Shown here: positions 10,285-58,552 of the stretch, piece after piece
How positions within the stretch are numbered: the first letter of the stretch is position 1
Layout of the letters: the number at the start of each line of letters is the position of its first letter
Source of the DNA: an uncultured Candidatus Saccharibacteria bacterium
GTDB taxonomy: Bacteria > Patescibacteriota > WWE3 > 2-01-FULL-39-13
Length of the DNA stretch: 64,000 nt
Direction of reading: 5' to 3'
Assembly (NCBI GenBank): GCA_965230915.1
Contig: OZ246395.1
Span: 406,284 to 470,283, forward strand
The notes under the pieces: model-generated
Seen by the model: the letters and a program-made list of their open reading frames with translations, nothing else
The model's database searches: none
What the model was told of the DNA's origin: nothing
Position numbers and translations under genes: made by a program

Positions 10285-10399
10285 TTAATTGTATTTTGCC
10301 TTCTTTATTGCATGAAGTACTGCGAAATAATTTTTAAATAAGCGCGTTTTAGTGAGACTTCTCTTATGCTATCATTCATCCAGAGATTTAATTCTGCCC

Positions 10400-11524
10400 A
10401 TGCCGCAAACTGTTTTAGGCCTCGACATAGGAAGTAGCCATTTAAAGGCTATATACGTTGATAAAAGCACTAACCCCAATAAATTATTGAGGTATGCGAT
10501 GGTACCCTCAGCCAACCTCGGTGAAAAAGTTTTTTCGGGAACAGAACAAGACGCAGAAGATGCATCAGCATTTATAAGAGAATTTTTGCACGATGCAGGC
10601 TTTCCAAGTACCGGCCAAGTTGTTGCTGTTTTACCTGAAACCAAAGTCTTTAGCAAAGTTATAAGTATGCCAATGCTTAAAGGTAAAGAATTTGAAGAAG
10701 CAATTAAGTGGGAAGCCGAACAACATATTCCAAATCCGATATCAGAAGTTTATTTAAAATATACGCTTTTAAAAGAAGATGAAACTAAAAAAGCTCCAGC
10801 TAAAGATTTGCTCGATGTCGTTCGCGGCAAAGTAACGGGCAACGACACTGAAGAATTCGGTACTATGGAAGTTCTATTGGTTGCGGCGCCAAAAACTTTA
10901 GTAGATCGATATATGAAAATATTTTCCAGGGCCGGTCTTGAAACTTTAGGACTTGAGCCAATTTCAATTTCAGTTATAAGATCAACTGCTACGGCTAAAG
11001 AACTTGCTGTTCCATCTATAATAGTAAATCTGGGTCAAACTAGTATTGATTTCTATTTTTCACTCGAAAACAATTTAAGATTTGTTAATACCACTAGTTT
11101 TGGAATATCCAGTGTAATAAAAGCAATCGAAAAAGAATTAAATATTTCACCTATACAAGCCGGTGAATACTTATTTACTTACGGATTTCGCGAAGGTGAA
11201 TTAGGCGGAAAAATAAAACAAGTTATCACACCTGTATTTTCTTTAATTGCAGATGAATTAAGAAAAACTCAAAAATATGTAGAAAATCGCTCTCAATATT
11301 TTTCTGAAAATGATTATGGCGGAATTCGCCGTGTAGTTTTAACCGGTGGCGGAGCTTTAGTTCCAGATTTAATGTATTACATGGCTTCTGAAGTAAAGCC
11401 GGAAGTTCAATATGCTAATCCGTGGAAATTAGTGGATATGTCAGGAATTACAGAACAAGCTAGGAAACAATTAGAAACATTAGGACCGCTTTTTGCGCCA
11501 GCCGTTGGAGCTGCCATTAAGTGA
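10400..11524 (+). CDS. pilM: type IV pilus assembly ATPase-fold protein PilM
   Basis: The actin-like N-terminus LGLDIGSSHLKAIYV matches PilM. The in-frame ATG at 10400 is preferred over the track start at 10352. Confidence 0.8.
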   Translation: MPQTVLGLDIGSSHLKAIYVDKSTNPNKLLRYAMVPSANLGEKVFSGTEQDAEDASAFIREFLHDAGFPSTGQVVAVLPETKVFSKVISMPMLKGKEFEEAIKWEAEQHIPNPISEVYLKYTLLKEDETKKAPAKDLLDVVRGKVTGNDTEEFGTMEVLLVAAPKTLVDRYMKIFSRAGLETLGLEPISISVIRSTATAKELAVPSIIVNLGQTSIDFYFSLENNLRFVNTTSFGISSVIKAIEKELNISPIQAGEYLFTYGFREGELGGKIKQVITPVFSLIADELRKTQKYVENRSQYFSENDYGGIRRVVLTGGGALVPDLMYYMASEVKPEVQYANPWKLVDMSGITEQARKQLETLGPLFAPAVGAAIK

Positions 11525-11565
11525 TCTTTGCTTAGCAGTTTAATTTATGTACAATATTAGTAACC

Positions 11566-12141
11566 ATGCCCAATGCTTTTAGTGATGTAAACTTCATTCC
11601 CGATGAAGTCGTTTCAGACAGAAAACGCAATTCTCAAGTAAAGAGCCTTAATAAACTAGCCGTTGGTGCAATGATATTAGCATTGATAGTTGGCGGCGGA
11701 CTTTTTGGTTATAACCTTTATACAAAAAATAAAATCACAACTTTAAAAACTGATGTTACAAAGAAGCAATCTGAGATTCAGGAATTGAATGAATTTGCTA
11801 AAGATGGTTATAAACTTGGTCTTAGGTTATCTAGCGTAAAAACTATTCTAAGTGAAAGGCCTTATTACGGAAAAATTGTTGAAGAACTTTATAATCAAGT
11901 TCCAGAAGGTGTCGGTATAAAAGATATTCAGGTAGATGATGAAGGAAGTGTTATTTTGACCGGGATCGCTGTTCCAAATTATATTCCAATAGCTACTTTT
12001 CAAGATAATTTAAAAGCTTCTGATAGCCAGTATTTTACAAAAATAAGATTAAGATCAGCAGCTCTAGAAAAGACAACTGGAAGTGTATCTTTTACATTAG
12101 AATTCGTAATTGATTTAACAAAAGTCCATGAGCCTATCTGA
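11566..12141 (+). CDS. pilN: type IV pilus assembly protein PilN
   Basis: It has a single N-terminal TM helix, a periplasmic domain, and lies downstream of pilM. Confidence 0.7.
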   Translation: MPNAFSDVNFIPDEVVSDRKRNSQVKSLNKLAVGAMILALIVGGGLFGYNLYTKNKITTLKTDVTKKQSEIQELNEFAKDGYKLGLRLSSVKTILSERPYYGKIVEELYNQVPEGVGIKDIQVDDEGSVILTGIAVPNYIPIATFQDNLKASDSQYFTKIRLRSAALEKTTGSVSFTLEFVIDLTKVHEPI

Positions 12142-13081
12142 AACAGTTGAGGAAACAATTGAAAAACTAAAACCACATCACCAGGAAGCTCAACCTGCCC
12201 CTGCTCCGTCAGTTCAGGCTGAAGCTTTACAAACTAATGAAGCAAGTAAATCTTCGTTTAGTATGGATGATTTAAAGGATTACATTGTGATAATAGTCTG
12301 TACTGCAATATGTTTAGCTGCAGTATTTTTATTAATAATTCCACAATACGAACAAATTTCCACAGTTAGTTCAGAATACACTTCAGTTCAAACCGAGCTT
12401 GGTGAACTTACAAAACAAGGTGAATACTTACAGAGCCTAGTTGGATTAAAAGACGAACTTGAAAAGAAAATTGAGCTTGCTTATCAGGCTTTGCCAAGTA
12501 ACGAAGAGAAGGTTCCATATACACTCGACCAAATTGTTCAAATTGCGGATAAAAGCGGAGTTTCTGTTGATACATTAAGTTTGAGTGGAATAACTGACCC
12601 TGAACAAGGTTCGGCTGATAACTTAAGAACCGTTATGATTCAATTAAGCGTCACCGGTCCACACGATAGTATCCAAGCTTTTATTTATAGCCTAGAAAAG
12701 GCTCGAACGATTGTTGATGTTTCAAATTTCCAAATTTCAAATCAAGAAACAAGTGATACAACAACAACTGATAGCGGAGAAATTATAACTACAACAACGA
12801 CTCAAGAAGAAGCTACCATGTCTTTAAGAGCATATTTAAAGCCTGAGGCTGAATCTGAAAATGTAGATTTATCAGCATTAGCTAATTCACCAAATTACGA
12901 TAAAGTAATTGAGAAGCTAAACAGCATGGATTTTTATGAAACGAAGCCGACTGACATTGAATTTGGAAGACCTGATCCTTTCGGTGTGGGTGAATCTACT
13001 TCAAGTGCTCAAGAGGAAAATCAGACAGAAACCAATCAAACTGACAATGAGGACGACGATTCTAGCGGATTCAGTAATTAA
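12128..13081 (+). CDS. pilO: PilO-like pilus assembly protein with a T-rich low-complexity segment and an acidic C-terminus
   Basis: It has a TM helix (IVIIVCTAICLAAVFLLII) and sits in the position expected for the third gene of a pilMNO module. Confidence 0.55.
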   Translation: MSLSETVEETIEKLKPHHQEAQPAPAPSVQAEALQTNEASKSSFSMDDLKDYIVIIVCTAICLAAVFLLIIPQYEQISTVSSEYTSVQTELGELTKQGEYLQSLVGLKDELEKKIELAYQALPSNEEKVPYTLDQIVQIADKSGVSVDTLSLSGITDPEQGSADNLRTVMIQLSVTGPHDSIQAFIYSLEKARTIVDVSNFQISNQETSDTTTTDSGEIITTTTTQEEATMSLRAYLKPEAESENVDLSALANSPNYDKVIEKLNSMDFYETKPTDIEFGRPDPFGVGESTSSAQEENQTETNQTDNEDDDSSGFSN

Positions 13082-46387: not shown

Positions 46388-47767
46388 TTATGATTTTATC
46401 AGGTTTTCAACCTCTTTTACTTTTTCATCAACCAAATTTTGGGATTTTGCTTCTACATTTAAACGAACAACCGGTTCGGTATTTGATTTTCGTAAAGAAA
46501 ACCTCCAGTCGCGGTCTGAATCTACTGCAACTCCATCAAGTTTATCTATTGGAAGCCCCGCTTCTTTATAATGAGCTTCGACTTTTTCTAAAACTTCATT
46601 GGCATCTTCAACTTCGTAGTTTATTTCTCCACTAATAAAGTATTTTGATTTGTATTCGGCTAACATTTCGCCCAGCGACTTACCTGAATCTTTGATAAGT
46701 TCAAGAATTAGAGCAATTGTTAGAGCTGAACTATCTGCGTAATATAAATCTTTATAAAAGAAATGAGAGCTGGTTTCTCCACCAAATACTGAATCGATTT
46801 CGCGCATTTTGGCTTTTAGAAATGCGTGTCCTGCAATATATTCGACTGGAATTCCACCTGCCGCTGTAACCGTATCTTGAATCGCCCATTTTAAGCGGTT
46901 TTCGTGCACTATTTTTGCATGCGGGAATTTTTCTAAGACTTTTTTACCTAAAAGACAGATTATAAAGTAGCCCAAAGAAAATTCGCCCTTTTCGTCAATA
47001 AAGAAGCAACGATCTGCATCACCATCTAGAGCAATTCCCAGGTCGGCTTTTTCTTCGATAACTCGGTTTTTTAAGTCGGCAACATTTTCTTCTTTAATTG
47101 GATTTGCTTCATGGTTTGGAAAAGTTCCATCGGGTTCAAAATACATCGGAACGACTTCTAAATTTGTTCCGCCAAATACTCGCTCGAACATTTCACCGCC
47201 CATTCCATTTGCAGCATCAACTACAACTTTTAATTTTGGAAGTTCGTGTAAATTAACGATTTCATGAATCGCCTCGCGAAAAGGAACATACGGATCTAAA
47301 TCACGAACCTGAATTTCCTTTTTTAGCATTTCATAGTTTTGTTTTGCTACAAAGTCACGAAAATCATACATTCCAGTGTCAGCTCCAACTGGAACTGAGC
47401 CTTTTGTTACCATTTTGAATCCGTTGTATTGTTTTGGGTTATGAGAGGCAGTAATCATTATTCCAGCCTCTAAGCCGAACTTTCCGACTGTAAAATACAT
47501 TACTTCTGTTGGAACACGACCTAAATTTACTACTAGCGCATCGGCATCGGCGATACCTTGAGTAAGTGCTTCCCACATAGATGGGGATGAAATACGCATA
47601 TCGTAACCGACTGCAACTTCTTTGACTTTAAAATAATCTACAAATGCGCGGCCTACTGCATATGCAGTATCTTCATTTATTTCATCGGGAAAAACACCTC
47701 GAACATCGTATGCTTTAAAAATTGATGGATTAATTGGTGTCATATGTTTGCATTCTGCACAATGCAA
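46388..47767 (-). CDS. phosphomannomutase/phosphoglucomutase (alpha-D-phosphohexomutase)
   Basis: It has the active-site TASHNP motif and four-domain length (459 aa). Confidence 0.9.
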   Translation of the reverse strand: MHCAECKHMTPINPSIFKAYDVRGVFPDEINEDTAYAVGRAFVDYFKVKEVAVGYDMRISSPSMWEALTQGIADADALVVNLGRVPTEVMYFTVGKFGLEAGIMITASHNPKQYNGFKMVTKGSVPVGADTGMYDFRDFVAKQNYEMLKKEIQVRDLDPYVPFREAIHEIVNLHELPKLKVVVDAANGMGGEMFERVFGGTNLEVVPMYFEPDGTFPNHEANPIKEENVADLKNRVIEEKADLGIALDGDADRCFFIDEKGEFSLGYFIICLLGKKVLEKFPHAKIVHENRLKWAIQDTVTAAGGIPVEYIAGHAFLKAKMREIDSVFGGETSSHFFYKDLYYADSSALTIALILELIKDSGKSLGEMLAEYKSKYFISGEINYEVEDANEVLEKVEAHYKEAGLPIDKLDGVAVDSDRDWRFSLRKSNTEPVVRLNVEAKSQNLVDEKVKEVENLIKS

Positions 47768-47836: not shown

Positions 47837-48586
47837 ATGGTTTTAAACATAAATAAGCCTCTTGGAATCACAAGCTACGACGTTATTCGAAGACTAAAAA
47901 AGCAATACCCAGGAGAAAGAATTGGTCACGCAGGAACGCTAGACCCTTTGGCTGAAGGTATTTTAATTTGCCTTGTAGGCAAACAAGATACCAAGCGCCA
48001 GTCAGAATTTATGGGAGTTGTTAAGGAGTATGAGTATGAAATGGTATTTGGATTCGACACCGATACTTATGATGTTTTAGGTCTTGTTAATGCTTCAAGA
48101 GAATATACTCCAAATGACATTGAAGCAAAAATAAAAAATAACCTGCAAACTAGAAAATTAAAACAGAAACTTCCGCCATTTAGCGCATCTAAAGTTAACG
48201 GAAAACCTTTGTACCGTTGGTATCTTGATGGACAAATTGATCGAGTGGAGATTCCCGAAAATAATATTGAAGTTTTGGAACACGAGTTGATGTCCACCAA
48301 TGTAGTTTCAAAATCGGATTTGCACGTAAAAGTTAATGAACTTGTTAACTTGGTTAATTCACGTTTTAGAAAAGATCAGGTTTTAAAGTCGTGGGAAGAA
48401 ACTTTATCAAATACTAATCAGACAGAATTTTTGACGGCCAGACTTCGCGCGAAAGTTTCAAAAGGAACTTATATTCGTGGATTAGCTAATGATTTAGGAA
48501 ATAAACTTGAAACAGGTGCGTGCACCTTAACTATAAAGCGCACGCAAGTTGGAGATTTTAAAATCTCTGATTCAGTTTCAATTTAA
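47837..48586 (+). CDS. truB: tRNA pseudouridine(55) synthase
   Basis: It has the catalytic Asp motif HAGTLDPLAEG. Confidence 0.9.
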   Translation: MVLNINKPLGITSYDVIRRLKKQYPGERIGHAGTLDPLAEGILICLVGKQDTKRQSEFMGVVKEYEYEMVFGFDTDTYDVLGLVNASREYTPNDIEAKIKNNLQTRKLKQKLPPFSASKVNGKPLYRWYLDGQIDRVEIPENNIEVLEHELMSTNVVSKSDLHVKVNELVNLVNSRFRKDQVLKSWEETLSNTNQTEFLTARLRAKVSKGTYIRGLANDLGNKLETGACTLTIKRTQVGDFKISDSVSI

Positions 48587-51417
48587 TTATTCGAGCTTAA
48601 CAAGTTTGTAAGCTTATAGAAGTTAATAACTTCTGGAGATGTTTTAACTTTTGTTGCAACGCCATTCGAATTTAAATCATTTGAAATAATAAAGTTATTA
48701 GAAGCCTTATCTAAAAGGTAAATTGCAGTTTTATTATTTGTAATTGAATTCAAGCTAATTTCATTGTCGCTTGTTTTAATATATGCGGCATTTGTATTGT
48801 CAGCTAATACGTTAGATCTGAAAATATTTCCGTTTGAATTTCCATAAACATAAATTCCGTGTCGGCTACTTCGCAGAACTTCATTATTAAGAACATAATT
48901 TTTGCCGCTATCTTCGTTTAGACGAATGCCATTTACGCTATTATTTACTTTGTTTCCTTCGATTAGATTTCCAGTAGAAGCCCAAATTGCGATTCCATCA
49001 TTATTATTTTCTATGATATTGTTGCGCACGATATTATCGTTTGAAGCCATATGCAACATTATTCCATGCAGCTTATTATCGCGTGAAATATTATTAACGA
49101 TTATATTGTTGTAGCACCTTTTTGAAAAAATAATTCCATGTATGCCATTTCTTTCAGCAATATTATTTTCAACAATAAAGTTATTCGAATCGTCATGTGG
49201 ATCTAGACCGTATACAACGTTGTCGTTAAATTTATTGTTTTTCCAGACGATTCCGGTAGCCCCATAAGTATATGCTCCAAAATAATTATGGTGATAATTA
49301 TTTCCGATTGATTCTCCTGTCGAAACATAGTGAGGATATGTTCTGGATGGGATTCTCCATGAAACTCCGTATGTTCCTCCTGCAGTTGTTAAATCTTTTT
49401 CTTTATAACCGAGCCAAGCCATTTCTGAGTTATAAATATCAAGTCTAGAATTTGCCTTCATTAAAACATAGCTTCGGCCATCATTATATTCTTCGTCGAA
49501 ATTATTTTTGTCGGTATCCCAGGAAGTTACTTTTGTATCCCGAATTGTTAAACGGCCATTATATCCAATTAAAGTCGCAAATCCTGAAGTGGTACTTTTC
49601 ATTTTTAGCCATGTTACATCTGGCGAAACGATATCTAGTGATGTTCCGCTTTCCATATATATATTTGCAGATAAAACCCATATGCCATCAGATTCTTTGG
49701 TTAAATGTGTATATCCGTCTTTCGCAGCAATGTCAGCAATTGTGAATTTGTGTCCGCGACCGGAAAGATAAATTGTATTAGTTGCCGCATCATATCTTTG
49801 TCCTCTCGCAGTTGGAGTTTTTCTTTGGTAATTGAACATTGTTAAAGGTTCATATTTAACCGGTTTAAGTGGAATAGTCAAAATATCTCCAGGGTTTACA
49901 CGGTCCCAGTTTGGCAAAATTGGGAAATTGAATTTCACAATCTCGGAAACAGGAATATTATATTCAGCAGCAATCTGTGAAAGGCTTTCGCCACCTTTTA
50001 CTTCGCGGCGAATTAAGCTTGGAGATGTATCAAGTTTATTTAATTCGTCTAAATTTGCAGAAATATCTTTAGTGGTAAGAGCTGAATCTTCTTTTAGATT
50101 TTGAGCAATTGTCATTCGAGCAGCATTAGCTTTCACTTCCATATCATGAAAGTGAAGATAAGGAATTGATGCAACAGCAATTAAGACATAAGCAGTATAA
50201 ATGTATGCTCCAGCTGTATTAATAATATTGGTTTTGCTCATTCTAGAAATATCCCAGCGTGTTAACCAACCTTGTGTTCTGATAGTTATTAAAGCAAAAA
50301 TACGTATTACGCCTGACCAGTATGAATAAATAATATAAGTAGGAATATGAATTATATGCATCGGATATCTTTTTAAATGTGGATATACTTTTATAGTACG
50401 GGTAATTAACCACCAAGCCAAAAGTACCGCAGCTGAAATAAAGTGTCCGTATGCTAATGAAATTGCAAAGAATGCAAATCCGTAAACCATTGTAAAAGGA
50501 GCAATAAATCTATCTACCAAAAAGAATAATAGATGTGGGTGTTTGCGAATCCATTTGCTACTAAGTGCTTTAGTGTCTGCTCTCCAGCTATTTCGTGCCC
50601 AACGAATTTTTTGTTTTGCGAATGTTTGAAAATCTTCTGTTCCTGGTGTTAATACAACTGCATTTTTCTGATAAACAGTTTTCCATCCGTCTGCTTGGAC
50701 TAGATTTGTTAAGCATTTATCATCACCGCTAATTGATTTCTTCCCCCAGAAATGTTCGTTTGTAAGTTGGTCGAGTAATGGTTTTACAGCTGAAGTTCTG
50801 TAAAATGCAGTTCTTCCCGATAAGCATGAAAGTGCATTTCCCATTCCAGATAAATATGGCATTTCGTCGAAGTAACGAAGGTCTAAAAGTATATCGAATA
50901 AAATTCGAGTTAAAGTATTTGGATTAGTAACGTTTTGCCTTGTTGCAACTCCTCCGACTTTTTCGTCAGCAAATGGAGCAAGTGCATTTTTCATAACCCC
51001 TTCTGTCCATTCTGTATCACTATCGATAAGTGCAACAATTTCATATTTTGCAAGTTTCATTCCTGTTGCTAAAGCTTCTCGTTTTCCGGGGATTTTTGTA
51101 ATTTCTAAAACTCCGTTTTTATATTTTTTCTGAAAGTCTTTAAAAACTTTTATCGAAGATTCGTCTGTATAGTCGATAACAGCAATAATTTCTGAAGGTT
51201 TTTCTTTGGCCCAAGAATCTAGCGCTTTTCTAAATCCAATTGGATCTTCATTATAAACTGGAGTAATAACCGAAACTTTTGCATTATATTCTGTTGTTTT
51301 TACTTTGTAGTAAAGGTGGCCACAGATTTTTTTGTATCCCCAGACGCTCCAGCGCCATAATCCAATCAAACCTATTGGAAGATACTCAACATAAGGAATT
51401 TCAGAGAACGATATCAT
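48583..51417 (-). CDS. fusion protein: processive GT2 polysaccharide synthase, TM helices, LysM domain and a right-handed beta-helix with a DPHD motif (mannuronan C5-epimerase-like)
   Basis: The GT2 part has VITPVYNE, IDSDTEW (DxD) and QKIRWARN (Q-x-x-R-W). Several TM helices follow. The LysM domain is GGESLSQIAAEYNIPVSEIVKF...GDILTIP. The PbH1/CASH repeats are NNIxxNxxHGI..., with GLDPHDDSNN. Confidence 0.8.
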   Translation of the reverse strand: MISFSEIPYVEYLPIGLIGLWRWSVWGYKKICGHLYYKVKTTEYNAKVSVITPVYNEDPIGFRKALDSWAKEKPSEIIAVIDYTDESSIKVFKDFQKKYKNGVLEITKIPGKREALATGMKLAKYEIVALIDSDTEWTEGVMKNALAPFADEKVGGVATRQNVTNPNTLTRILFDILLDLRYFDEMPYLSGMGNALSCLSGRTAFYRTSAVKPLLDQLTNEHFWGKKSISGDDKCLTNLVQADGWKTVYQKNAVVLTPGTEDFQTFAKQKIRWARNSWRADTKALSSKWIRKHPHLLFFLVDRFIAPFTMVYGFAFFAISLAYGHFISAAVLLAWWLITRTIKVYPHLKRYPMHIIHIPTYIIYSYWSGVIRIFALITIRTQGWLTRWDISRMSKTNIINTAGAYIYTAYVLIAVASIPYLHFHDMEVKANAARMTIAQNLKEDSALTTKDISANLDELNKLDTSPSLIRREVKGGESLSQIAAEYNIPVSEIVKFNFPILPNWDRVNPGDILTIPLKPVKYEPLTMFNYQRKTPTARGQRYDAATNTIYLSGRGHKFTIADIAAKDGYTHLTKESDGIWVLSANIYMESGTSLDIVSPDVTWLKMKSTTSGFATLIGYNGRLTIRDTKVTSWDTDKNNFDEEYNDGRSYVLMKANSRLDIYNSEMAWLGYKEKDLTTAGGTYGVSWRIPSRTYPHYVSTGESIGNNYHHNYFGAYTYGATGIVWKNNKFNDNVVYGLDPHDDSNNFIVENNIAERNGIHGIIFSKRCYNNIIVNNISRDNKLHGIMLHMASNDNIVRNNIIENNNDGIAIWASTGNLIEGNKVNNSVNGIRLNEDSGKNYVLNNEVLRSSRHGIYVYGNSNGNIFRSNVLADNTNAAYIKTSDNEISLNSITNNKTAIYLLDKASNNFIISNDLNSNGVATKVKTSPEVINFYKLTNLLSSNN

Positions 51418-52312
51418 CTGCTTTCTCCTCTACATTTACGGGCGTGCTTTGTTGAATAAGTCTGTTGTTAACTTCGACTGTAGCTCTTAAATGAATAGGA
51501 TCGTGTCCTTGGCTTTCGGCCCAGGTTAAAAATCCTTGCGTATCTTTTGGTAAGCAAACTCCTCCGAATGGACCCATGTCTTTTGTTCCATATTTCGGAT
51601 TCCAAAGTGCCTCTGCACTCTTTGTTACCAAATCAAAAACTTTTTCAGTATCTAGTTTTAGGGATTTTCCAATTTCTCTCATTTCATTAAAGAAAGAAAT
51701 TTTTGCAGCGTTCAATAAATTATGAACATATTTTTGGAATTCTGCTTCTTCTATTGTTAATCGATGAACTTCAGGAGCAAAGTCTTTATAAACTTTTTGC
51801 AAGATTTCAAAAGATCTGTCATCGTAAGCTCCGACAACTACAATCCAAGGGTTATCAAAGTCTTCAACTGCTTTATATGCTCGTAAATATTCCGGATTCA
51901 TACAAAGTCCAAAATCTTCGCCGACTTTTTTGCCTGAAACTTCTTCAGCTTTTTTTGAAAGTTCAACTGTTGTTCCTGGTGGAAGTGTGCTTCGTGTAAC
52001 TATAACTTGATAGTTTTTGTTATTTTTTATGACAACTCCAAGTTCTGCGACCGCACTTTGTAAATATTGAAGATCTACACTTTTATTTACAGTCGGAGTT
52101 GGGACCGCTAAAAAGTTTACGATCTCCTCACCTTTTTTGTATTTTGTGGATTTTAATTCTTCAGCGGAAATTGCCTTATAGCCTTCTGCTTTAATTTGCT
52201 CAATTCTAATCGGATTAACATCAACGAATGTGACGTCAAATCCACGTTTGAGGAATCCTCTGCCTGTAGCATAACCAACTACTCCTGAACCGATAACATT
52301 TATTTTGATCAT
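51401..52312 (-). CDS. UDP-glucose/GDP-mannose 6-dehydrogenase family protein, C-terminally truncated (303 aa)
   Basis: It has GSGVVGYATG (Rossmann fold), VPTPT, NPEYLR and the catalytic Cys in FGGVCLPKD. It stops about 45 aa after the Cys, so it has no nucleotide-sugar-binding C-terminal domain. It overlaps the GT2 start by 17 nt. Confidence 0.75.
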   Translation of the reverse strand: MIKINVIGSGVVGYATGRGFLKRGFDVTFVDVNPIRIEQIKAEGYKAISAEELKSTKYKKGEEIVNFLAVPTPTVNKSVDLQYLQSAVAELGVVIKNNKNYQVIVTRSTLPPGTTVELSKKAEEVSGKKVGEDFGLCMNPEYLRAYKAVEDFDNPWIVVVGAYDDRSFEILQKVYKDFAPEVHRLTIEEAEFQKYVHNLLNAAKISFFNEMREIGKSLKLDTEKVFDLVTKSAEALWNPKYGTKDMGPFGGVCLPKDTQGFLTWAESQGHDPIHLRATVEVNNRLIQQSTPVNVEEKADDIVL

Positions 52313-52363: not shown

Positions 52364-53758
52364 TTATTTTTCAGTCAATAATTTTATGTCGAATTTCTTA
52401 TTTGTTGTTGAAGTTCCTTCGGTTGGTTGTTCATATACGATATAAAAATTATTATCATAATTATTTTTCGCGGCTAAATGAGGATAGTAAATATTTTCTC
52501 CTAATAAAATTTTGTATGTAAACTTATTTTCGAGCGAGTCGAACTTTGAAAAATATCCTTTAGAATCGATCGGGTCTTCTCTCGGGAATTCACTCTTATT
52601 TTGGTTTTCTAGCCAAACAATACCGACTTCATCATTTTTATTTGTTCCGAGTACAGGAAAGAACTGATAGGCATCACTTTCTAATACCGTTTGAGGCTTT
52701 GTCCAATTGCGGTTTTCTAAGATAGAAAAATATAATTCGGCTTTATCATCAACATCACTTCTCCAAGTCGCAATGATTTTGTCATTGTATTTTACGGCGG
52801 ACACATGACGTGAGTCATCAAACCCATTACTTATGTTTTTCCAATCGCTCCATGTTTCACCTTTATCATAAGAAATTGCGTGCCAGATTTGTTGGTCATT
52901 GCTTTCACGGCTTGAATAGAAAAATAAATTTAAATTATTATTAGAATCCAATAATAAATATGGTCGGGATTGAGTGTTATTCGGACTTGTATTAATGTTT
53001 TTCCATTGTGACCAAGTTTTACCACCATCATTTGATTTTATAAATTTAGCTTGCTGGTTTCTATTTTCCGAATCCTTCCCTTCCCAAACTATGTAGAGGT
53101 TGTCGCCTTCTGTTAGTATCTGCGGGTGCTCCTGCCAGTAATCTTCATCATCAGTGTATCCTTCAACTAAACTTGGAATAGTTGGTTTCGACCATGATTT
53201 TCCGTTATCAATGGAGCGAATATACTTAACCTGTCGACCATTATTGCTGCCTTCAGTAAGGCCATACCAAACTACATGAATTGTGTCGTTTTGATCTACC
53301 GCAATCGATGGAACGCGTTGGGTTGCCCCATCTGAATCAGTTACGACTTTATTGGATATTAATTTACCGTTTTTTGATTTAGATATATATATTTCGAAGT
53401 CTTCTTTAGTTTTTGCTCTGTAAGCTGTAAAGATTTCGCCGTTACTATTTATCGCTACTTTATCCTGACCCGTATATCCTAAGCCTTTATTATCATCAGT
53501 TGATCCTACTTTTACGATTTTGCCTGATGGGCTTGATTCCTTAATATAATCGTTCGGGCCGGTTGTTAATATTTGTTCTACTGTTTGTGAAATATCCGAA
53601 AATTCGACGGGGGAATCAAAGTCTTTATTAGAAAAAGTCCGGTACATAAGCGCCGAAACTACTATTATTGGAGCAAGAGCTACTGGTATATAAATGAAGC
53701 TCCACTTGAATTTGGGCATAACTTTAATAACTTTAGCCCGTAATCTAGGTGATTTCAA
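52364..53758 (-). CDS. BNR/Asp-box repeat protein (sialidase-like beta-propeller), N-terminally membrane-anchored
   Basis: It carries repeated S-x-D-x-G-x-T-W motifs: SIDNGKSWS, SNDGGKTWS and SYDKGETWS. Confidence 0.7.
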   Translation of the reverse strand: MKSPRLRAKVIKVMPKFKWSFIYIPVALAPIIVVSALMYRTFSNKDFDSPVEFSDISQTVEQILTTGPNDYIKESSPSGKIVKVGSTDDNKGLGYTGQDKVAINSNGEIFTAYRAKTKEDFEIYISKSKNGKLISNKVVTDSDGATQRVPSIAVDQNDTIHVVWYGLTEGSNNGRQVKYIRSIDNGKSWSKPTIPSLVEGYTDDEDYWQEHPQILTEGDNLYIVWEGKDSENRNQQAKFIKSNDGGKTWSQWKNINTSPNNTQSRPYLLLDSNNNLNLFFYSSRESNDQQIWHAISYDKGETWSDWKNISNGFDDSRHVSAVKYNDKIIATWRSDVDDKAELYFSILENRNWTKPQTVLESDAYQFFPVLGTNKNDEVGIVWLENQNKSEFPREDPIDSKGYFSKFDSLENKFTYKILLGENIYYPHLAAKNNYDNNFYIVYEQPTEGTSTTNKKFDIKLLTEK

Positions 53759-53885: not shown

Positions 53886-53962
53886 GGGCCAGTAGCTCAG
53901 TTGGTTAGAGCACCTGCCTTTTAAGCAGGGTGTCGAAGGTTCAAATCCTTCCTGGCTCACCA
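53886..53962 (+). tRNA. tRNA-Lys (anticodon TTT)
   Basis: A cloverleaf was folded by eye. The acceptor is GGGCCAG/CTGGCTC, the D-arm is GCTC/GAGC, the anticodon stem is CCTGC/GCAGG with loop CTTTTAA, and the T-arm is GAAGG-TTCAAAT-CCTTC. A CCA end is present. Confidence 0.85.
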
Positions 53963-53968
53963 TTTAAT

Positions 53969-56113
53969 CTAATTAACTTTGATAGTCTTAATCTCGGACT
54001 TATTCCCTGCTCTATCTTTTATATATACATCAAAGACATATTTCGAGCCGTTAATATCTGCCGGCAATGTGCAGGTAAAATTACCCTCATCCTCTAAGCC
54101 GCAAGATAAATTTGTGAATTTAATAGACTTGTCTGCATTATAAATATCAATATTTAAGGTACCCTTATCATTTGAAGACCCTTCGATATTTAAAGTTTTA
54201 GATGGACTAATTTTGATAGTAACTGCGTTTGTTATATTTTTAGAGTTTATTTTTGATATTGTAAATTCTGTTGGAGTTTTAGTATCGACAGTAAACTTAT
54301 ATATTTCAGATTTAACAGAAATATTAGTCGCATCAATAGAACTTATATACCATTCATATTTCCCGTCTTTTAAATTAGTAAATGTATAATTTGTTCGATC
54401 TTTATCTGTGCTGGCTATTCGGTTAAAAGTTTTATCTTTTCCAATTCGCTTAAGATGAATATCATACTTTACGGCTGCTGTAACCTTATTCCAAACTACA
54501 GTTACATCATCTGATTTGCTGTACCCATTATTTAAAGTTGGGTATTGTTTCTTCTCGCGGCCGCTACTATCTTCATAGGAATATTTTTTCTTAGTATTTG
54601 TTATTGCCGTTGCTCCTAAAGATGCAGCATCAGAATCTTCTAATCTTAAGAGATAACCATCATAATTATCATCAATATTGGGTTCTCTAGTATCCCCACC
54701 TAGATAATGGTTGAAGTCAGTTTCTTTTGAGAATGCGCCTGCTGCATATATGTATCCATTTTTTTCATTAAAATCTATTGATTGAACCAATGATCCGGCC
54801 TCTTCACTATAGTAAGAATGAACCCATCTGAAATTGCCATTTTCATCGAGAGCAAGAATATAACCAGCCCTGGCATCAGCATCGTATATTGCGTCAGATG
54901 GACCCGGGTCAAAATCCATAAACAGGTTATAATTGCTCCCCAGGTATACATTGCCGTCGCTTGTGACTGCCATGCTTTCCAAATTTTCTACATCATCAGT
55001 TCCGTATGTTACAGTCCATCTATATGTGCCGTCTGTAGAAAATTTACTAACATATACATCTGAATTAGCAGGTTCAGCAACCGTATGTATATCTTCGCTA
55101 TCTGTAGGATCAAAATCTATATAACCAGATCTAATGTATCCTCCACTATATACATTTCCTTTATTATCAAGCCTTACAAGTTGAGGAAGGTCATTCCCAG
55201 TACCCCCAAAAGTTTTGCTCCAGATAAAATTTCCATTGGAGTTATACTTAACCAAAAACCCATCCAGGCCGCCATTTGAAGTAACTGATGATGTACCTGG
55301 AGTTCCATCTAGATCTGCGCCATCAGAATACGAACCGACAGCATAAATGTATCCGTTCTTATCAATTGCTACGCCATAAACATAATCATTGTCTAGCCCA
55401 CCTAAAGTTCTTGTCCATTTATAATTGCCATCTTTATCGTATTTGGATATGAAACCTTCATAATTCTCTCCTGTAAGTAAATCTATACCTGATGTAGCAT
55501 CCATATCTATATCGATTCCACCAAAATCTCCGACAAGATAGATATTATCGCCATTCTGATCAACAGCTATGTCACTTGGTTCTACCACACCAGTGTCATA
55601 AGCTTTATACCAAAGCAAGGTGCCATTCTTATCATATTTAGCAAAAACAAGTGCTGCATCATCATTTGGTGTTACATTCGTTGTGCCTGAATTTGGATCA
55701 AGATCGAAAGTCCCATCAAAATAAAATGCTATATATATATTCTTATTTTTATCAACTGCTATGCGCGTAGAATTAGCATCCCCGTCGCCAATTATTCCTT
55801 TTGTCCAAATTTCATTGCCATTTTTATCAGTTTTACTAATAAAGACATTGTATCTGGATGTCACAGCAGTCAAATTATGAACTCCAGAACCCGGATCAAA
55901 ATCCGTTGTTCCTTTAAATCGTCCCATGGTCACAATATTTTCATCGGAATCGTGGGATATTCTTTCGAAAAAAGTTGTATCTGTTCCCGGATATGTTTTT
56001 GTAAAATTATATTTATGGTTGTCAGCGGCAAGTACCGGTTTAGTCATATAAAATATGGCGAGGATTAGAATAAATATTGCGGATAAAAATCTTTTGGCAG
56101 AAAGAAAAAGCAT
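53969..56113 (-). CDS. secreted SBBP-repeat (beta-propeller) protein with C-terminal Ig/Fn3-like domains
   Basis: It has a signal peptide and repeated D.NGN..W...GG..D..VA.D..GNIY..G and DFDPG.G units. Confidence 0.65.
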   Translation of the reverse strand: MLFLSAKRFLSAIFILILAIFYMTKPVLAADNHKYNFTKTYPGTDTTFFERISHDSDENIVTMGRFKGTTDFDPGSGVHNLTAVTSRYNVFISKTDKNGNEIWTKGIIGDGDANSTRIAVDKNKNIYIAFYFDGTFDLDPNSGTTNVTPNDDAALVFAKYDKNGTLLWYKAYDTGVVEPSDIAVDQNGDNIYLVGDFGGIDIDMDATSGIDLLTGENYEGFISKYDKDGNYKWTRTLGGLDNDYVYGVAIDKNGYIYAVGSYSDGADLDGTPGTSSVTSNGGLDGFLVKYNSNGNFIWSKTFGGTGNDLPQLVRLDNKGNVYSGGYIRSGYIDFDPTDSEDIHTVAEPANSDVYVSKFSTDGTYRWTVTYGTDDVENLESMAVTSDGNVYLGSNYNLFMDFDPGPSDAIYDADARAGYILALDENGNFRWVHSYYSEEAGSLVQSIDFNEKNGYIYAAGAFSKETDFNHYLGGDTREPNIDDNYDGYLLRLEDSDAASLGATAITNTKKKYSYEDSSGREKKQYPTLNNGYSKSDDVTVVWNKVTAAVKYDIHLKRIGKDKTFNRIASTDKDRTNYTFTNLKDGKYEWYISSIDATNISVKSEIYKFTVDTKTPTEFTISKINSKNITNAVTIKISPSKTLNIEGSSNDKGTLNIDIYNADKSIKFTNLSCGLEDEGNFTCTLPADINGSKYVFDVYIKDRAGNKSEIKTIKVN

Positions 56114-56217
56114 TAATAAAATTGTAACAATTGAAATATTTAAGTCTATATAGTGAATTATGATAATCGATCTAGAATTTTAGATCTTGCCATTTAAAAT
56201 AGTTTATACAAATCAAC

Positions 56218-56886
56218 CTATTTATTTGTTTTGAAAAGTATCGTTATATTTTCACCGTAAACTTCTGAGGTAGAATCACTCATGGAATCAACTTTTTTAG
56301 CTGGTTCATCGAAATTTTTCCCACTGGAAGTATTAAAATTGGTCTTCACTGATTTAATTTCAAAGGAGTTACCTTCAGCCGGTTGATCAAAGGTATCGAT
56401 CAGCTCTATATGTTTTTCCCCTTTGTTTAGAGTGCCACACTTTACCTTTGTATCCCTACCCTCAGGTCTGTCATATGCAGTATGAGTGAACTTAACATCA
56501 ACAGTAACTTCTACTGCCGTTTTTTCTTCTATGTTTTCAACTAGGATAAAGACTAAATTTTTATTTGGTGGATCTGCTCGTTGAAAATCATTAATTAAAT
56601 TACGGACATTATCTTTTGTGGCCAAAATGGGATATTTAGAAATAAACGCATCATCAATTTTGCTTGCTAAAATAAATTTAACTTTAATGTAAGGAAGTAC
56701 TTCACTATGAATTGTATGCAGAAGAGTTTTATAAGTAAGATATACGAAGACTAAGGTGAAAACAGCATTTATCACACCATCGTATCTAGAAAATTCATCT
56801 ATACTTCTCCACGCAAAGTAGGCTAGTGATAGTATAGCTAAACCTAATATTATTTCTGGGAGGTTGCTTTTAAAGTTCAATTTCAT
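56218..56886 (-). CDS. hypothetical membrane protein (222 aa)
   Basis: It has two N-terminal TM helices and overlaps the upstream ORF by 17 nt. Confidence 0.35.
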   Translation of the reverse strand: MKLNFKSNLPEIILGLAILSLAYFAWRSIDEFSRYDGVINAVFTLVFVYLTYKTLLHTIHSEVLPYIKVKFILASKIDDAFISKYPILATKDNVRNLINDFQRADPPNKNLVFILVENIEEKTAVEVTVDVKFTHTAYDRPEGRDTKVKCGTLNKGEKHIELIDTFDQPAEGNSFEIKSVKTNFNTSSGKNFDEPAKKVDSMSDSTSEVYGENITILFKTNK

Positions 56887-57190
56887 CCCTCCCGCTAAAA
56901 TTGTCCGTCTTACCTTTCAATTCATCTACGGCACTTTTTATTCTCGATTTTAGAAGCTTGATGAAATCCTCTGCGCTTTGTTCATCAGAAAATTGAAAGC
57001 TTGTATTTAGGCTTGTAACGGGGATTACGCTTCTCGCCCGTCCGTTATAATATATAGTTTCTGGCGCTATCGATATAGAAGGCGCTCCGAATCTTTTCAC
57101 ACGATCAATTTCGTCTTCCGAATACTCTGTTATCTCGACATTAACTAGATAGCTGCCAGCTTTTAAGTTTTTTTCTATTACAACCTTCAT
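56870..57190 (-). CDS. hypothetical protein (106 aa)
   Basis: ORF only. It is co-oriented and overlaps the next gene. Confidence 0.3.
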   Translation of the reverse strand: MKVVIEKNLKAGSYLVNVEITEYSEDEIDRVKRFGAPSISIAPETIYYNGRARSVIPVTSLNTSFQFSDEQSAEDFIKLLKSRIKSAVDELKGKTDNFSGRDEIEL

Positions 57191-57255: not shown

Positions 57256-58521
57256 TTATTTCACCACCACACTCACAGCCGAAGGCATCTTAGACTCGCC
57301 TAACTCGCTGTCCTCATCATTTTGATACACAGCAGATACTTTATAAGAATATGATCCTGCAGGTTTTTGAACTGTTGCGTCAGTATTTGTTGAGATCAAA
57401 ACATATTTATAATCTGATGACGATGTCTTTTCATAAATTTTATAGCCAATTATTTCGGCGTCGTCTTCGCCGGGAGCTGCTTTCCACGAAAGTTTTATTC
57501 CACCTGCAACGGCTGACCATTTAAGATTTGTTGGCTTTTTGTAATCTCCAACTTTTAAACTTGCGAATCTTTCATCAAATGCATCATCTGTAATTACAAT
57601 TTGTTCAGGTTCAGTAACTTCTGATTCTGTAGTGTTTTCAGTTTCAGAAACTTCACCAGATGTACCTGCTCCATTTCCGGTACATGTTCCATTATGACAA
57701 ACTTGTAATCCATAAATTGTTACTTGTGCAAAATCGCATTCACCTGCATCAGGTCCATCGGTAAGTTTTGTGCAATTATCGCCCGATTGGTTGTATGCTC
57801 CAGCTTTAAAATAAGCGCCGCTAAAGGTTTTATTTTTAACATATGGAAGGTCTGCTCCATTGTATACGTAATTGATTTTTCCATTTGATACTTTAAATCC
57901 TATCGAGAATTTGTGCCCTAAAGCATAACTATTTGTTACTAAATATCCATGGGTCGTATCGCCATCGGTGATCCAAATGCTATTTAGATTGCCATCACCT
58001 GTGTTACCTCCATATTTATTTGATTCGATTCTAAAGACAGTTACATCGTCATCCGAATCATGAATTTGCCCGGCAACTACAACCGGTTTATCGCCAATTG
58101 GTAAGATGTCTACAGATTGTTCGATAATCATTGAGTGATTTCCGGAAGTCGAAGACCACGATGCGTTATCTTTTCCATCATTTTTCATTTCTCGAAGTTC
58201 CGACCTCGGATTATTAGAACCTGAGGTCGTTTCGCCATCTGTTCGAACCTTAAAAACTACCCCATTTGCAGCTTCATTTAGATAAAACCACTCGTCTGCA
58301 TAAGTTTTTAGGCTTGGTGATGAGCTTATTTTAATCTCTTTGCCGTCATCGATCGGTAAAGTTAGTTTCCAATTTTTGGATCCGATAAGGTCCATCGGGT
58401 ATGTTATGCTGGCGTCAGATTCCTTCGGCATTTTTGAAAATGCAATGAATGCAATAATCGATAGTATTACAGCTCCAATGACTAAAAAAATGTTCATTAG
58501 CTGACTTGTCGCAATTTTCAT
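57256..58521 (-). CDS. PL7 family polysaccharide (alginate/polyuronate) lyase with an N-terminal membrane anchor and a C-terminal Fn3-like domain
   Basis: All three PL7 signature blocks are present in order: RSELREM, QIH (AGQIHDSDDD) and YFKAGAYNQ. Confidence 0.8.
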   Translation of the reverse strand: MKIATSQLMNIFLVIGAVILSIIAFIAFSKMPKESDASITYPMDLIGSKNWKLTLPIDDGKEIKISSSPSLKTYADEWFYLNEAANGVVFKVRTDGETTSGSNNPRSELREMKNDGKDNASWSSTSGNHSMIIEQSVDILPIGDKPVVVAGQIHDSDDDVTVFRIESNKYGGNTGDGNLNSIWITDGDTTHGYLVTNSYALGHKFSIGFKVSNGKINYVYNGADLPYVKNKTFSGAYFKAGAYNQSGDNCTKLTDGPDAGECDFAQVTIYGLQVCHNGTCTGNGAGTSGEVSETENTTESEVTEPEQIVITDDAFDERFASLKVGDYKKPTNLKWSAVAGGIKLSWKAAPGEDDAEIIGYKIYEKTSSSDYKYVLISTNTDATVQKPAGSYSYKVSAVYQNDEDSELGESKMPSAVSVVVK

Positions 58522-58552
58522 ACCTATATAATAGCAAAATATATGCGCTTAA

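Follow-up and report, generated by a model that had tools for sequence, protein, structure and literature searches.

To our knowledge, Pseudomonas and Azotobacter are the only bacteria whose alginate biosynthesis has been characterised, and there it requires a 12-gene trans-envelope machine. BcsZ and PslG are examples of the cognate glycanases that synthase operons encode, and the lyase of the Pseudomonas and Azotobacter alg operon, AlgL, is a periplasmic toroid of polysaccharide lyase family 5 (PL5) set within the diderm Alg8/44/K/E/X/G machine. Lyases of family 7 (PL7) also serve producers: in Azotobacter vinelandii, the PL7 enzymes AlyA1-3 act on the producer's own alginate, with AlyA3 opening the cyst coat, and the bifunctional AlgE7 detaches alginate from the cells (PMC4444821). 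Here, we analyse a PL7 gene and a putative polyuronate synthase in its neighbourhood, both found in a 64,000-nucleotide stretch of DNA (hereafter, the window) from an uncultured Candidatus Saccharibacteria bacterium (GTDB lineage Patescibacteriota; WWE3; assembly GCA_965230915.1, contig OZ246395.1, positions 406,284 to 470,283 of the forward strand). The reading that we favour, with slightly more confidence than doubt, is that the PL7 is tethered at the cell surface and works as an endolytic lyase on an alginate-like polyuronate of the cell's own making.

The module around this synthase and the canonical alg cluster have a common logic, in that both bring together a dehydrogenase, a family 2 glycosyltransferase (GT2), an AlgG-type epimerase, and a lyase. 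In contrast to the setting of AlgL, the window system belongs to a presumably monoderm cell, its epimerase is fused to the synthase, and its PL7 lyase lies outside the operon. Pfam and NCBIfam scans of the cluster neighbours revealed no homologues of PilZ/Alg44, AlgK, AlgE, AlgX, AlgIJF, or PL5, and the best matches of the window GT2 are hyaluronan synthase and NodC, ahead of any protein labelled Alg8. We therefore do not place the module in the canonical alg operon family, of which it is at most a working analogue.

Among characterised lyases, the best match is ALY-1 (also called AlyPG), a polyguluronate lyase made by Corynebacterium sp. ALY-1 (1UAI in the PDB; EC 4.2.2.11), which is 44% identical across the catalytic domain, has the same motifs, and is matched at its R, Q, H, and Y residues. 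ALY-1 is a small secreted single-domain enzyme of an alginate degrader, whereas the window PL7 adds an anchor, an acidic linker, an Fn3 domain, and a 13-residue loop, and sits near a synthase in a genome of the candidate phyla radiation (CPR). The best structural match to the predicted model, AlgAT5 from Defluviitalea phaphyphila (5ZQI; template modelling (TM) score 0.92, 42% identity), comes from the catabolic context of a thermophilic alginate-utilising Firmicute and is without the membrane-anchor and Fn3 architecture. PA1167 (1VAV; phmmer E=7e-11) and AlyA1-3, which are lyases of alginate producers, belong to PL7 like the window protein. A further set of relatives, described below, is encoded beside synthases in other CPR lineages (L017 in Levy-, L023 in Ames-, L026 in Woese-, L078 in Roizman-, L054 in Moran-, and L072 in Nomurabacteria). 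These proteins resemble the window PL7 in their motif set (here RSELR, QIH, and YFK.G.YTQ), in their small size, in a hydrophobic segment at the N-terminus, and in being encoded near a GT2-AlgG fusion of the same kind and a short dehydrogenase; they differ in their identity to it (36-43%), in having no Fn3 domain, and in their distance from the synthase, which is usually between 10 bp and 3 kb, as against 5.8 kb in the window.

A PL7 lyase with a rare domain architecture

The gene and the parts of its product are as follows, with residue (aa) numbers, the basis of each assignment in brackets, and model confidence given as the predicted local distance difference test (pLDDT); P0002 is an orthologue discussed below.

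57256..58521, minus strand: PL7 polysaccharide lyase gene, 421 aa, with signal anchor, catalytic jelly roll, linker, and Fn3 domain (open reading frame, Pfam, PDB, AlphaFold AF2 model, Foldseek)
58435..58509, minus strand: N-terminal transmembrane helix or signal anchor, aa 5-29 (Kyte-Doolittle, AF2 model)
57676..58413, minus strand: PL7 catalytic beta-jelly-roll domain, aa 37-282 (pLDDT >93; 77% identical to P0002)
58186..58206, minus strand: motif RSELREM, aa 106-112, corresponding to the conserved PL7 region RXELR (PMC7460543)
58060..58068, minus strand: motif QIH, aa 152-154 (sequence match)
57787..57813, minus strand: motif YFKAGAYNQ, aa 237-245, corresponding to the PL7 region YFKAGXYXQ (PMC7460543)
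57547..57675, minus strand: disordered acidic Thr/Ser/Glu-rich linker, aa 283-325 (pLDDT <50 at aa 287-312)
57259..57546, minus strand: C-terminal Fn3-like beta-sandwich, aa 326-421 (PDB phmmer and full-length model)

The membership of this protein in PL7 is fully supported, as the family model, the three motifs, the catalytic residues, and the predicted fold all agree. The open reading frame (ORF) is intact from ATG to stop. It matches Pfam PF08787 (Alginate_lyase2) with E=2.1e-39 and 136.1 bits (gathering score 29.7), over positions 4-225 of the 225 in the profile, and phmmer against the PDB returns 1UAI (ALY-1) at E=2.9e-48 and 5ZQI (AlgAT5) at E=9.7e-48; with a family match and PDB matches of this strength, a chance occurrence of the motifs is excluded. 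An NCBIfam scan returned no family, presumably because it holds no model for PL7. An earlier reading of the sequence alone (the sequence-only reading) had named the three motifs and described them as lying in canonical order and spacing. The observation is confirmed: each occurs once in the protein and in the PL7 order, and the spacing amounts to 46 and 85 residues, compared with 45 and 72 in ALY-1, the difference being one 13-residue loop insertion between QIH and YFKAG.

In an alignment of 51 sequences, R106, E108, R110, Q152, I153, H154, K239, Y243, and Q245 are invariant. Of these, R106, Q152, H154, and Y243 align with R72, Q117, H119, and Y195 of ALY-1, the Arg, Gln, His, and Tyr positions to which structural work on ALY-1 and A1-II' assigns catalytic roles. 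The full-length AlphaFold model built on this alignment has a mean pLDDT of 85.9, rising above 93 over aa 40-282, and its top 43 Foldseek matches are all PL7 structures, with target-normalised TM scores of 0.92 to 5ZQI (E=1e-22) and 0.89 to 1UAI. The final 35 residues of the catalytic domain contain a group of four cysteines, in the region where the Cys-containing C-terminal stretch of ALY-1 aligns, and we count them, along with the N-terminal helix described below, in favour of an extracytoplasmic location. The fungal glucuronan lyase 7NDE appears only at rank 16, with 18% identity. The choice between alginate and glucuronan lyase that the sequence-only reading had left is hence narrowed toward the ALY-1 and AlgAT5 type (42-44% identity), and a fungal-type, PL7_4-like glucuronan lyase is unlikely.

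QIH in PL7 has been associated with a preference for polyguluronate (polyG) or mixed mannuronate-guluronate polymer (polyMG), although the QIH/QVH rule has exceptions (PMC7460543), and relatives of ALY-1 have been labelled PL7 subfamily 3 (PMC6117692), a group that takes in Streptomyces and Isoptericola enzymes. The presence of QIH, together with kinship to the G-specific ALY-1, suggests that the window enzyme may cleave at G- or MG-containing sites, a preference that would fit a polymer already acted on by an epimerase. Taken on its own, the window PL7 is an ordinary enzyme of a known family with a rare domain architecture.

That architecture begins with a 21-residue hydrophobic stretch (aa 8-28), where the 19-residue Kyte-Doolittle average peaks at 2.88 over aa 11-29 and the model places a helix at aa 5-29. 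We read this segment as a probable uncleaved signal anchor, or alternatively as a long signal peptide with a candidate site at A27-F28-S29|K30; either would put the catalytic domain outside the cell. The C-terminal tail gave no match to fn3 or any other family in a Pfam scan of the tail alone, even at E<=10. When compared against the PDB with phmmer, all of its matches are Fn3 domains (1WJ3 at 6e-6, FN3con at 0.0095, titin A77-A78 at 0.016), and at aa 332-420 the full-length model folds into a beta-sandwich of seven strands (pLDDT 77-89); a single-sequence model of the isolated tail (aa 313-421) reached a pLDDT of only 47. Homology and modelling together support a divergent C-terminal Fn3 domain. 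The description of the protein as membrane-anchored and Fn3-tagged is thus borne out by the predicted helix and by the sandwich, the latter with the qualification that it is divergent.

Only one full-length orthologue, P0002, was found among 5.8 billion clustered proteins. It is 66% identical overall and retains the layout of transmembrane segment, PL7 domain, linker, and Fn3 domain. Identity amounts to 77% in the catalytic domain and 72% in the Fn3 tail, falling to 42% in the linker and 22% in the transmembrane region, where P0002 is nevertheless also hydrophobic. Since the tail has stayed similar while the linker and transmembrane region drifted, the Fn3 domain appears to be under constraint.

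A putative synthase-epimerase fusion and its module

The genes that make up the putative synthesis module, and a mutase gene beside them, lie on the same strand as the PL7 gene.

48583..51417, minus strand: putative polyuronate synthase-epimerase fusion, 944 aa (Pfam, NCBIfam, PDB)
51401..52312, minus strand: short NDP-sugar 6-dehydrogenase, 303 aa (Pfam, TIGR03026 9e-56, PDB)
52364..53758, minus strand: BNR/sialidase-like beta-propeller protein with an N-terminal hydrophobic segment (Pfam BNR_2 4.5e-14)
46388..47767, minus strand: phosphomannomutase/phosphoglucomutase (PMM/PGM), two genes below the synthase (Pfam PGM_PMM I-IV; NCBIfam 2.5e-130)

The fusion protein consists of a processive GT2 domain at aa ~48-390 (with QKIRW at 269), a LysM domain at aa 473-516, and a beta-helix at aa ~560-936 (with DPHD at 739). 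The GT2 part matches NodC in NCBIfam (2e-28) and the Chlorella-virus hyaluronan synthase 7SP7 in the PDB (2e-18). The beta-helix matches the mannuronan C5-epimerase AlgG (4OZZ) with E-values of 5e-28 to 1.5e-27, as well as the NCBIfam model epimerase_AlgG (NF038177) at 1e-36, which is below the equivalog cutoff and is a domain-only match. DPHD is the catalytic motif common to the AlgG and AlgE epimerases (PMC4444821); YGLDPHDD of the fusion aligns exactly on YGIDPHDR of AlgG, and 27 homologues all keep the YG.DPHDD block unchanged. After the GT2 domain come three hydrophobic segments, which would fit a location of the LysM and epimerase parts outside the membrane.

The dehydrogenase gene overlaps the start of the synthase gene by 17 nt. 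Its product keeps the N-terminal NAD and central domains, including the catalytic-Cys motif GGVCLPKD at aa 250, but, unusually, is without the C-terminal nucleotide-sugar-binding domain PF03720. To place these genes in context, the proteins of the window were compared by tblastn with 83 loci, of which 79 were retained from 323 confirmed synthase loci in a scan of one genome per GTDB species, and four had been fetched earlier. A dehydrogenase of this short form (about 285-305 aa) stands beside the synthase at 69 of the 83 loci, and this recurrence indicates a conserved truncated variant, not an assembly artefact. Its matches to enzymes of the two candidate nucleotide sugars are near-equal in the PDB (AlgD GDP-mannose dehydrogenase 1MFZ at 1.4e-38; UDP-glucose dehydrogenase (UGDH) 3VTF at 1.9e-36) and favour UGDH-type models in NCBIfam (AglM at 2e-47).

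The BNR protein stands beside the dehydrogenase-synthase pair in 26 of the 83 loci, and is likewise found in L001, in L003, and on the P0002 contig. Separately, a BNR protein was observed near a Chloroflexota PL7 (L084). The PMM/PGM gene has the same position in L001 and possibly provides the precursor-supply step, where it could serve a GDP-mannose and a UDP-glucose route alike.

Because the synthase is fused to an AlgG-type epimerase and paired with an NDP-sugar dehydrogenase, the product of the module should be a polyuronate. A dehydrogenase, a processive GT2, and a polymer-level C5-epimerase would together predict a C5-epimerised, alginate-like polymer, which is the substrate class of ALY-1-like PL7 enzymes.

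Recurrent linkage of PL7 to the synthase family

The fusion is not peculiar to this genome. At least 535 proteins match it at E<1e-10, almost all of about 960 aa and with the same domains, and they come from Roizman-, Davies-, Levy-, Ames-, Chisholm-, and Woesebacteria, Saccharimonadales, and WWE3. The genome scan extends the family to Moran-, Nomura-, Falkow-, and Andersenbacteria, and to Caldilineaceae and Ardenticatenaceae of the Chloroflexota. Source annotations for the family read only "hyaluronan synthase", "glycosyltransferase", or "parallel beta-helix repeat protein", and LysM is usually present. Several loci with CPR-type gene content (L008-L010, L014, L018, L020, L022, L046, L047, and others) are titled Gammaproteobacteria or Bdellovibrionales, labels that look wrong.

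The strongest evidence for a tie between the lyase and the polymer is the linkage seen across these loci. A PL7 gene lies within 10 kb of the synthase in 19 of the 79 species loci, and at about 3 kb or less in 17 of those 19; when only the loci with at least 8 kb of flank on both sides are counted, PL7 is present in 9 of 42. Measured against a generous null (one random PL7 per 1-Mb genome, or 2% per locus), this linkage has P ~4e-15, a value to be read with the phylogenetic non-independence of the loci in mind. The arrangements are varied: synthase and PL7 are separated by a gap of 10-16 bp or overlap (L046, L078), they flank the dehydrogenase in the order synthase-dehydrogenase-PL7 (L017, L023, L024, L026), or they are convergent (L022, L054, L056, L067) or divergent (L052, L060, L077). 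All 19 linked proteins carry RSELR (RTELR in L022), QIH (QVH in two), and YFK(A/T/I/V)GxYTQ, and all have an N-terminal hydrophobic segment, while none has an Fn3 tail. The diversity of arrangements and lineages argues for a linkage that has been maintained, and its recurrence suggests that the synthase product is a PL7 substrate and that producer PL7s are part of the system.

Two side observations concern PL7 and beta-helix proteins in other settings. Two metagenome contigs of high GC content (0.61-0.63), L149 (1509-5746) and L154 (5677-10660), each carry a PL7 gene and, at a distance of a few kb, a gene for a separate AlgG-like beta-helix protein that shares 31% identity with the fusion over aa 541-862, which suggests that a PL7-epimerase pairing exists outside CPR as well. 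P0100, a Logan protein of 593 aa, combines beta-helix domains (PF13229, PF07602, PF05048) and a PL7 domain in one polypeptide, and so directly joins two activities for which the window has separate genes.

Gene order and other genes in the window

The window has a GC content of about 35% and includes housekeeping genes for RecR, DnaX, PilMNO, RecG, MutS/L, UvrABC, LexA, enolase, PPDK, and TruB. The nearest named relatives of its UvrB, at 65-71% identity, belong to candidate division WWE3 and other Patescibacteria; on this approximate placement the source organism belongs to CPR, its genome measuring about 1 Mb. PL7 is represented by a single gene. The genes for PilM, PilN, and PilO form a type IV pilus set at 10352-13081 (plus strand), which fits the pilus-dependent lifestyle reported for CPR.

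The minus strand carries every protein gene between 58521 and 48583. Starting at PL7, the order is a 106-aa ORF, a 222-aa ORF, a 714-aa protein, the BNR protein, the 303-aa dehydrogenase, and the 944-aa fusion, so that 5.8 kb, containing five protein genes and a tRNA gene on the opposite strand, separates PL7 from the synthase gene. The features in this interval that have not been listed above are the following.

53886..53962, plus strand: tRNA-Lys(UUU), between the 714-aa gene and the BNR gene (Rfam 75 bits; ARAGORN)
53969..57190, minus strand: three lineage-specific genes, for a 714-aa surface protein and two orphan ORFs of 222 aa and 106 aa (Pfam, NCBIfam)

No homologues of the three lineage-specific genes were found in any fetched locus. 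The 714-aa predicted surface protein (53969-56113, minus strand) has an N-terminal hydrophobic segment, SBBP beta-propeller repeats, and C-terminal Ig-like Big_13 domains, with a match to a LipL53-like lipoprotein family at 4e-28 and a faint, sub-threshold match to Y_Y_Y. The two orphan ORFs (56218-57190, minus strand) are directly downstream of PL7 and overlap by 17 nt; they have no Pfam or NCBIfam match and no homologue among the more than 160 fetched loci, and they recur beside PL7 on an independent Logan contig (L166, SRR14271365). On its other side, PL7 (start 58521, minus strand) is divergent from a DUF4112 gene (start 58553, plus strand), with just 31 bp (58522-58552) between the two starts. 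This leaves little space for two promoters, and so one of the two annotated starts or the promoter architecture may be unusual. Scans of 53.7-59.2 kb for sigma-70 promoters and terminators gave counts equal to those in shuffled controls, and are uninformative on transcription units.

On the contig of P0002, the order is DUF4112, PL7, three genes, BNR, dehydrogenase, and synthase. The three intervening genes differ from those of the window, and one of them is on the opposite strand. This gene order could reflect retained functional proximity or plain synteny between relatives.

Proposed function and alternative explanations

From the identity, motifs, predicted fold, and layout of the window PL7, its neighbours, and the linkage across CPR, we infer its topology, substrate, and physiological role as follows. 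The short dehydrogenase would produce an NDP-uronic acid, which the GT2 domain of the fusion would polymerise and export, and the fused AlgG-type domain, placed outside the cell, would epimerise part of the residues at C5. The PL7 would be tethered by its N-terminal signal anchor in the membrane of the monoderm cell, with the jelly roll outside the cytoplasm, followed by the flexible acidic linker and the Fn3 domain. It would cut the 4-linked polyuronate by beta-elimination, with R106 neutralising charge and Q152, H154, and Y243 transferring protons, and in doing so may trim, size, or release the polymer at the cell surface, or clear polymer that is mis-localised. Its role would then be comparable to that of AlgL, AlgE7, and AlyA3 in alginate producers, and to that of BcsZ or PslG in other synthase systems.

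Several observations weigh against this proposal. The nucleotide sugar could be either GDP-mannuronic acid (GDP-ManA) or UDP-glucuronic acid (UDP-GlcA), the dehydrogenase being without its C-terminal nucleotide-binding domain. The sequence-only reading had placed the lyase next to the synthase; the two do share a neighbourhood, but they are not adjacent, and the tRNA-Lys on the opposite strand together with the 5.8-kb distance excludes co-transcription, for which reason we reject a PL7-synthase operon. Across the scan, 60 of the 79 synthase loci have no PL7 within 10 kb, nor do the closest relatives labelled WWE3 or Saccharibacteria (L003/L005, L006, L058) within that distance; L001 ends just upstream of its BNR gene and offers no flank there. 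The genes for DUF218, DUF4112, and YceI are also conserved near P0002, so that shared proximity could be plain synteny.

The kinship of the window PL7 is a further point of difficulty. In a neighbour-joining (NJ) tree of catalytic domains, the 19 synthase-linked PL7s form one clade beside ALY-1 and the actinobacterial enzymes, whereas the window PL7 and P0002 fall in a separate clade with Chloroflexota-type PL7s, sister to and outside the clade of ALY-1 and the actinobacterial enzymes. Although ALY-1 is its best characterised match, a subfamily 3 label for the window PL7 would thus be tentative. The identities agree with the tree, at 57-64% to the Chloroflexota-type and 36-43% to the synthase-linked CPR proteins, and we therefore reject orthology between the window PL7 and the latter. 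A recent horizontal transfer of the PL7 gene is rejected as well, the GC content of 56-60 kb (0.34-0.35) matching that found elsewhere in the window. The genes of the Chloroflexota relatives P0004 and P0012 do not lie close to any synthase gene, although their metagenome-assembled genomes encode the synthase family elsewhere (L071 in JAPLGZ01 and L037 in JAWKOU01). Among the 79 closest metagenomic PL7 loci, many of them on short contigs, L117 and L119 clearly carry the module, and L135, L142, and L162 are partial cases. A reasonable reading would be that this lineage carries a Chloroflexota-type PL7 with an Fn3 domain in the role that the "native" cluster lyase has elsewhere.

The explanation that survives best beside our own, though we consider it unlikely, is that the enzyme is a foraging or host-access lyase acting on exogenous polyuronates, such as the matrix of a neighbour or host or algal alginate, and that its proximity to the synthase is coincidental or inherited synteny. 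Its nearest relatives, the Chloroflexota and actinobacterial PL7s, are in many cases fused to CBM32/F5_F8 or other scavenging-type binding modules, and their genes are not beside synthases, the module being found at only 2-5 of the 79 close metagenomic loci. The gene is outside the synthase operon, and a lyase with a surface tether and an Fn3 spacer would equally suit an external matrix. Against this, the window has no genes for uronate catabolism, an oligo-uronate lyase, or sugar uptake in a genome of about 0.95 Mb, with the caveat that the 64 kb examined are part of ~945 kb and that catabolic genes may lie elsewhere. Chance placement within 6 kb of the module would apply to ~1% of positions in a 945-kb genome, and an independent PL7 clade is recurrently linked to the same synthase family across CPR. 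The suggestion of the sequence-only reading, that the enzyme remodels or releases an endogenous polymer instead of scavenging, is accordingly retained in part: the AlgG-fused synthase and the dehydrogenase nearby and the PL7 linkage in 19 of 79 loci speak for it, while the lack of adjacency and co-transcription, the different PL7 clade, and the rarity of the module among the closest metagenomic loci weaken it.

More doubtful is a variant that keeps the surface role and changes the substrate, with the polymer being a glucuronan or a glucuronic acid (GlcA) heteropolymer made from UDP-GlcA, the PL7 a glucuronan lyase (EC 4.2.2.14), and the beta-helix an epimerase of the GlcA-to-iduronic-acid type or a lyase, not a mannuronan epimerase. 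The dehydrogenase is about equally close to UDP-glucose and GDP-mannose dehydrogenases (AglM 2e-47; 3VTF 2e-36 versus AlgD 1e-38), hyaluronan synthase and NodC, the closest matches of the GT2, work with UDP-sugars, and glucuronan lyases are part of PL7, with 7NDE among the Foldseek matches. AlgE7 shows that a beta-helix fold can act as a lyase; however, the characterised AlgG/AlgE-type beta-helix epimerases all act on mannuronan (PMC4444821). The lyase itself speaks against a glucuronan substrate, being 42-44% identical to ALY-1 (EC 4.2.2.11) and AlgAT5 and 18% identical to 7NDE, as does the PMM/PGM gene beside the module, though the latter is usable by either route.

That the protein is a catalytically dead or decaying PL7 kept as a carbohydrate-binding surface protein is very improbable, since nothing specific favours it (the 13-residue loop is the sole departure from ALY-1), the invariant family residues are all present in a full-length ORF with a high-confidence predicted fold, and the 77% identity of the catalytic domain to P0002, alongside a drifting linker and transmembrane region, points to purifying selection.

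If our proposal of an own-polymer lyase is extended to the wider family, a bolder reading, which we consider less likely than not, is that CPR and some Chloroflexota make an alginate-like, C5-epimerised polyuronate by a minimal three-to-four-gene system, and that the window PL7 is a xenologous replacement of the usual lyase, drawn from a Chloroflexota-type clade. In this reading, the minimal system would comprise the truncated dehydrogenase, the GT2-LysM-AlgG-type fusion, often the BNR protein, and a membrane-anchored PL7.

Implications for CPR surface biology

Our search of 8 million papers and preprints found none tying CPR or Patescibacteria to alginate lyase, PL7, C5-epimerase, mannuronan, or alginate biosynthesis, and the system around the window PL7 looks like an undescribed minimal alginate-like pathway. 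The interest of this PL7 lies in its context, where an enzyme of the polyguluronate-lyase type is found near a one-polypeptide synthase-epimerase, which PL7 genes directly adjoin in many related lineages and whose family is conserved across much of CPR. If these readings hold, alginate-type biosynthesis would reach far beyond Pseudomonas and Azotobacter, and the system would be a further case of synthase-dependent exopolysaccharide machinery that carries a cognate glycan-cleaving enzyme. It would also offer a compact two-to-four-gene set for making and tailoring alginate-like polymers. For the organisms themselves, it would mean that ultrasmall epibiotic bacteria possess both a defined matrix, serving as capsule or for attachment, and an enzyme of their own to remodel it, and it would put a name to a surface polymer in a group for which the chemistry of the envelope and of host attachment is almost unknown.

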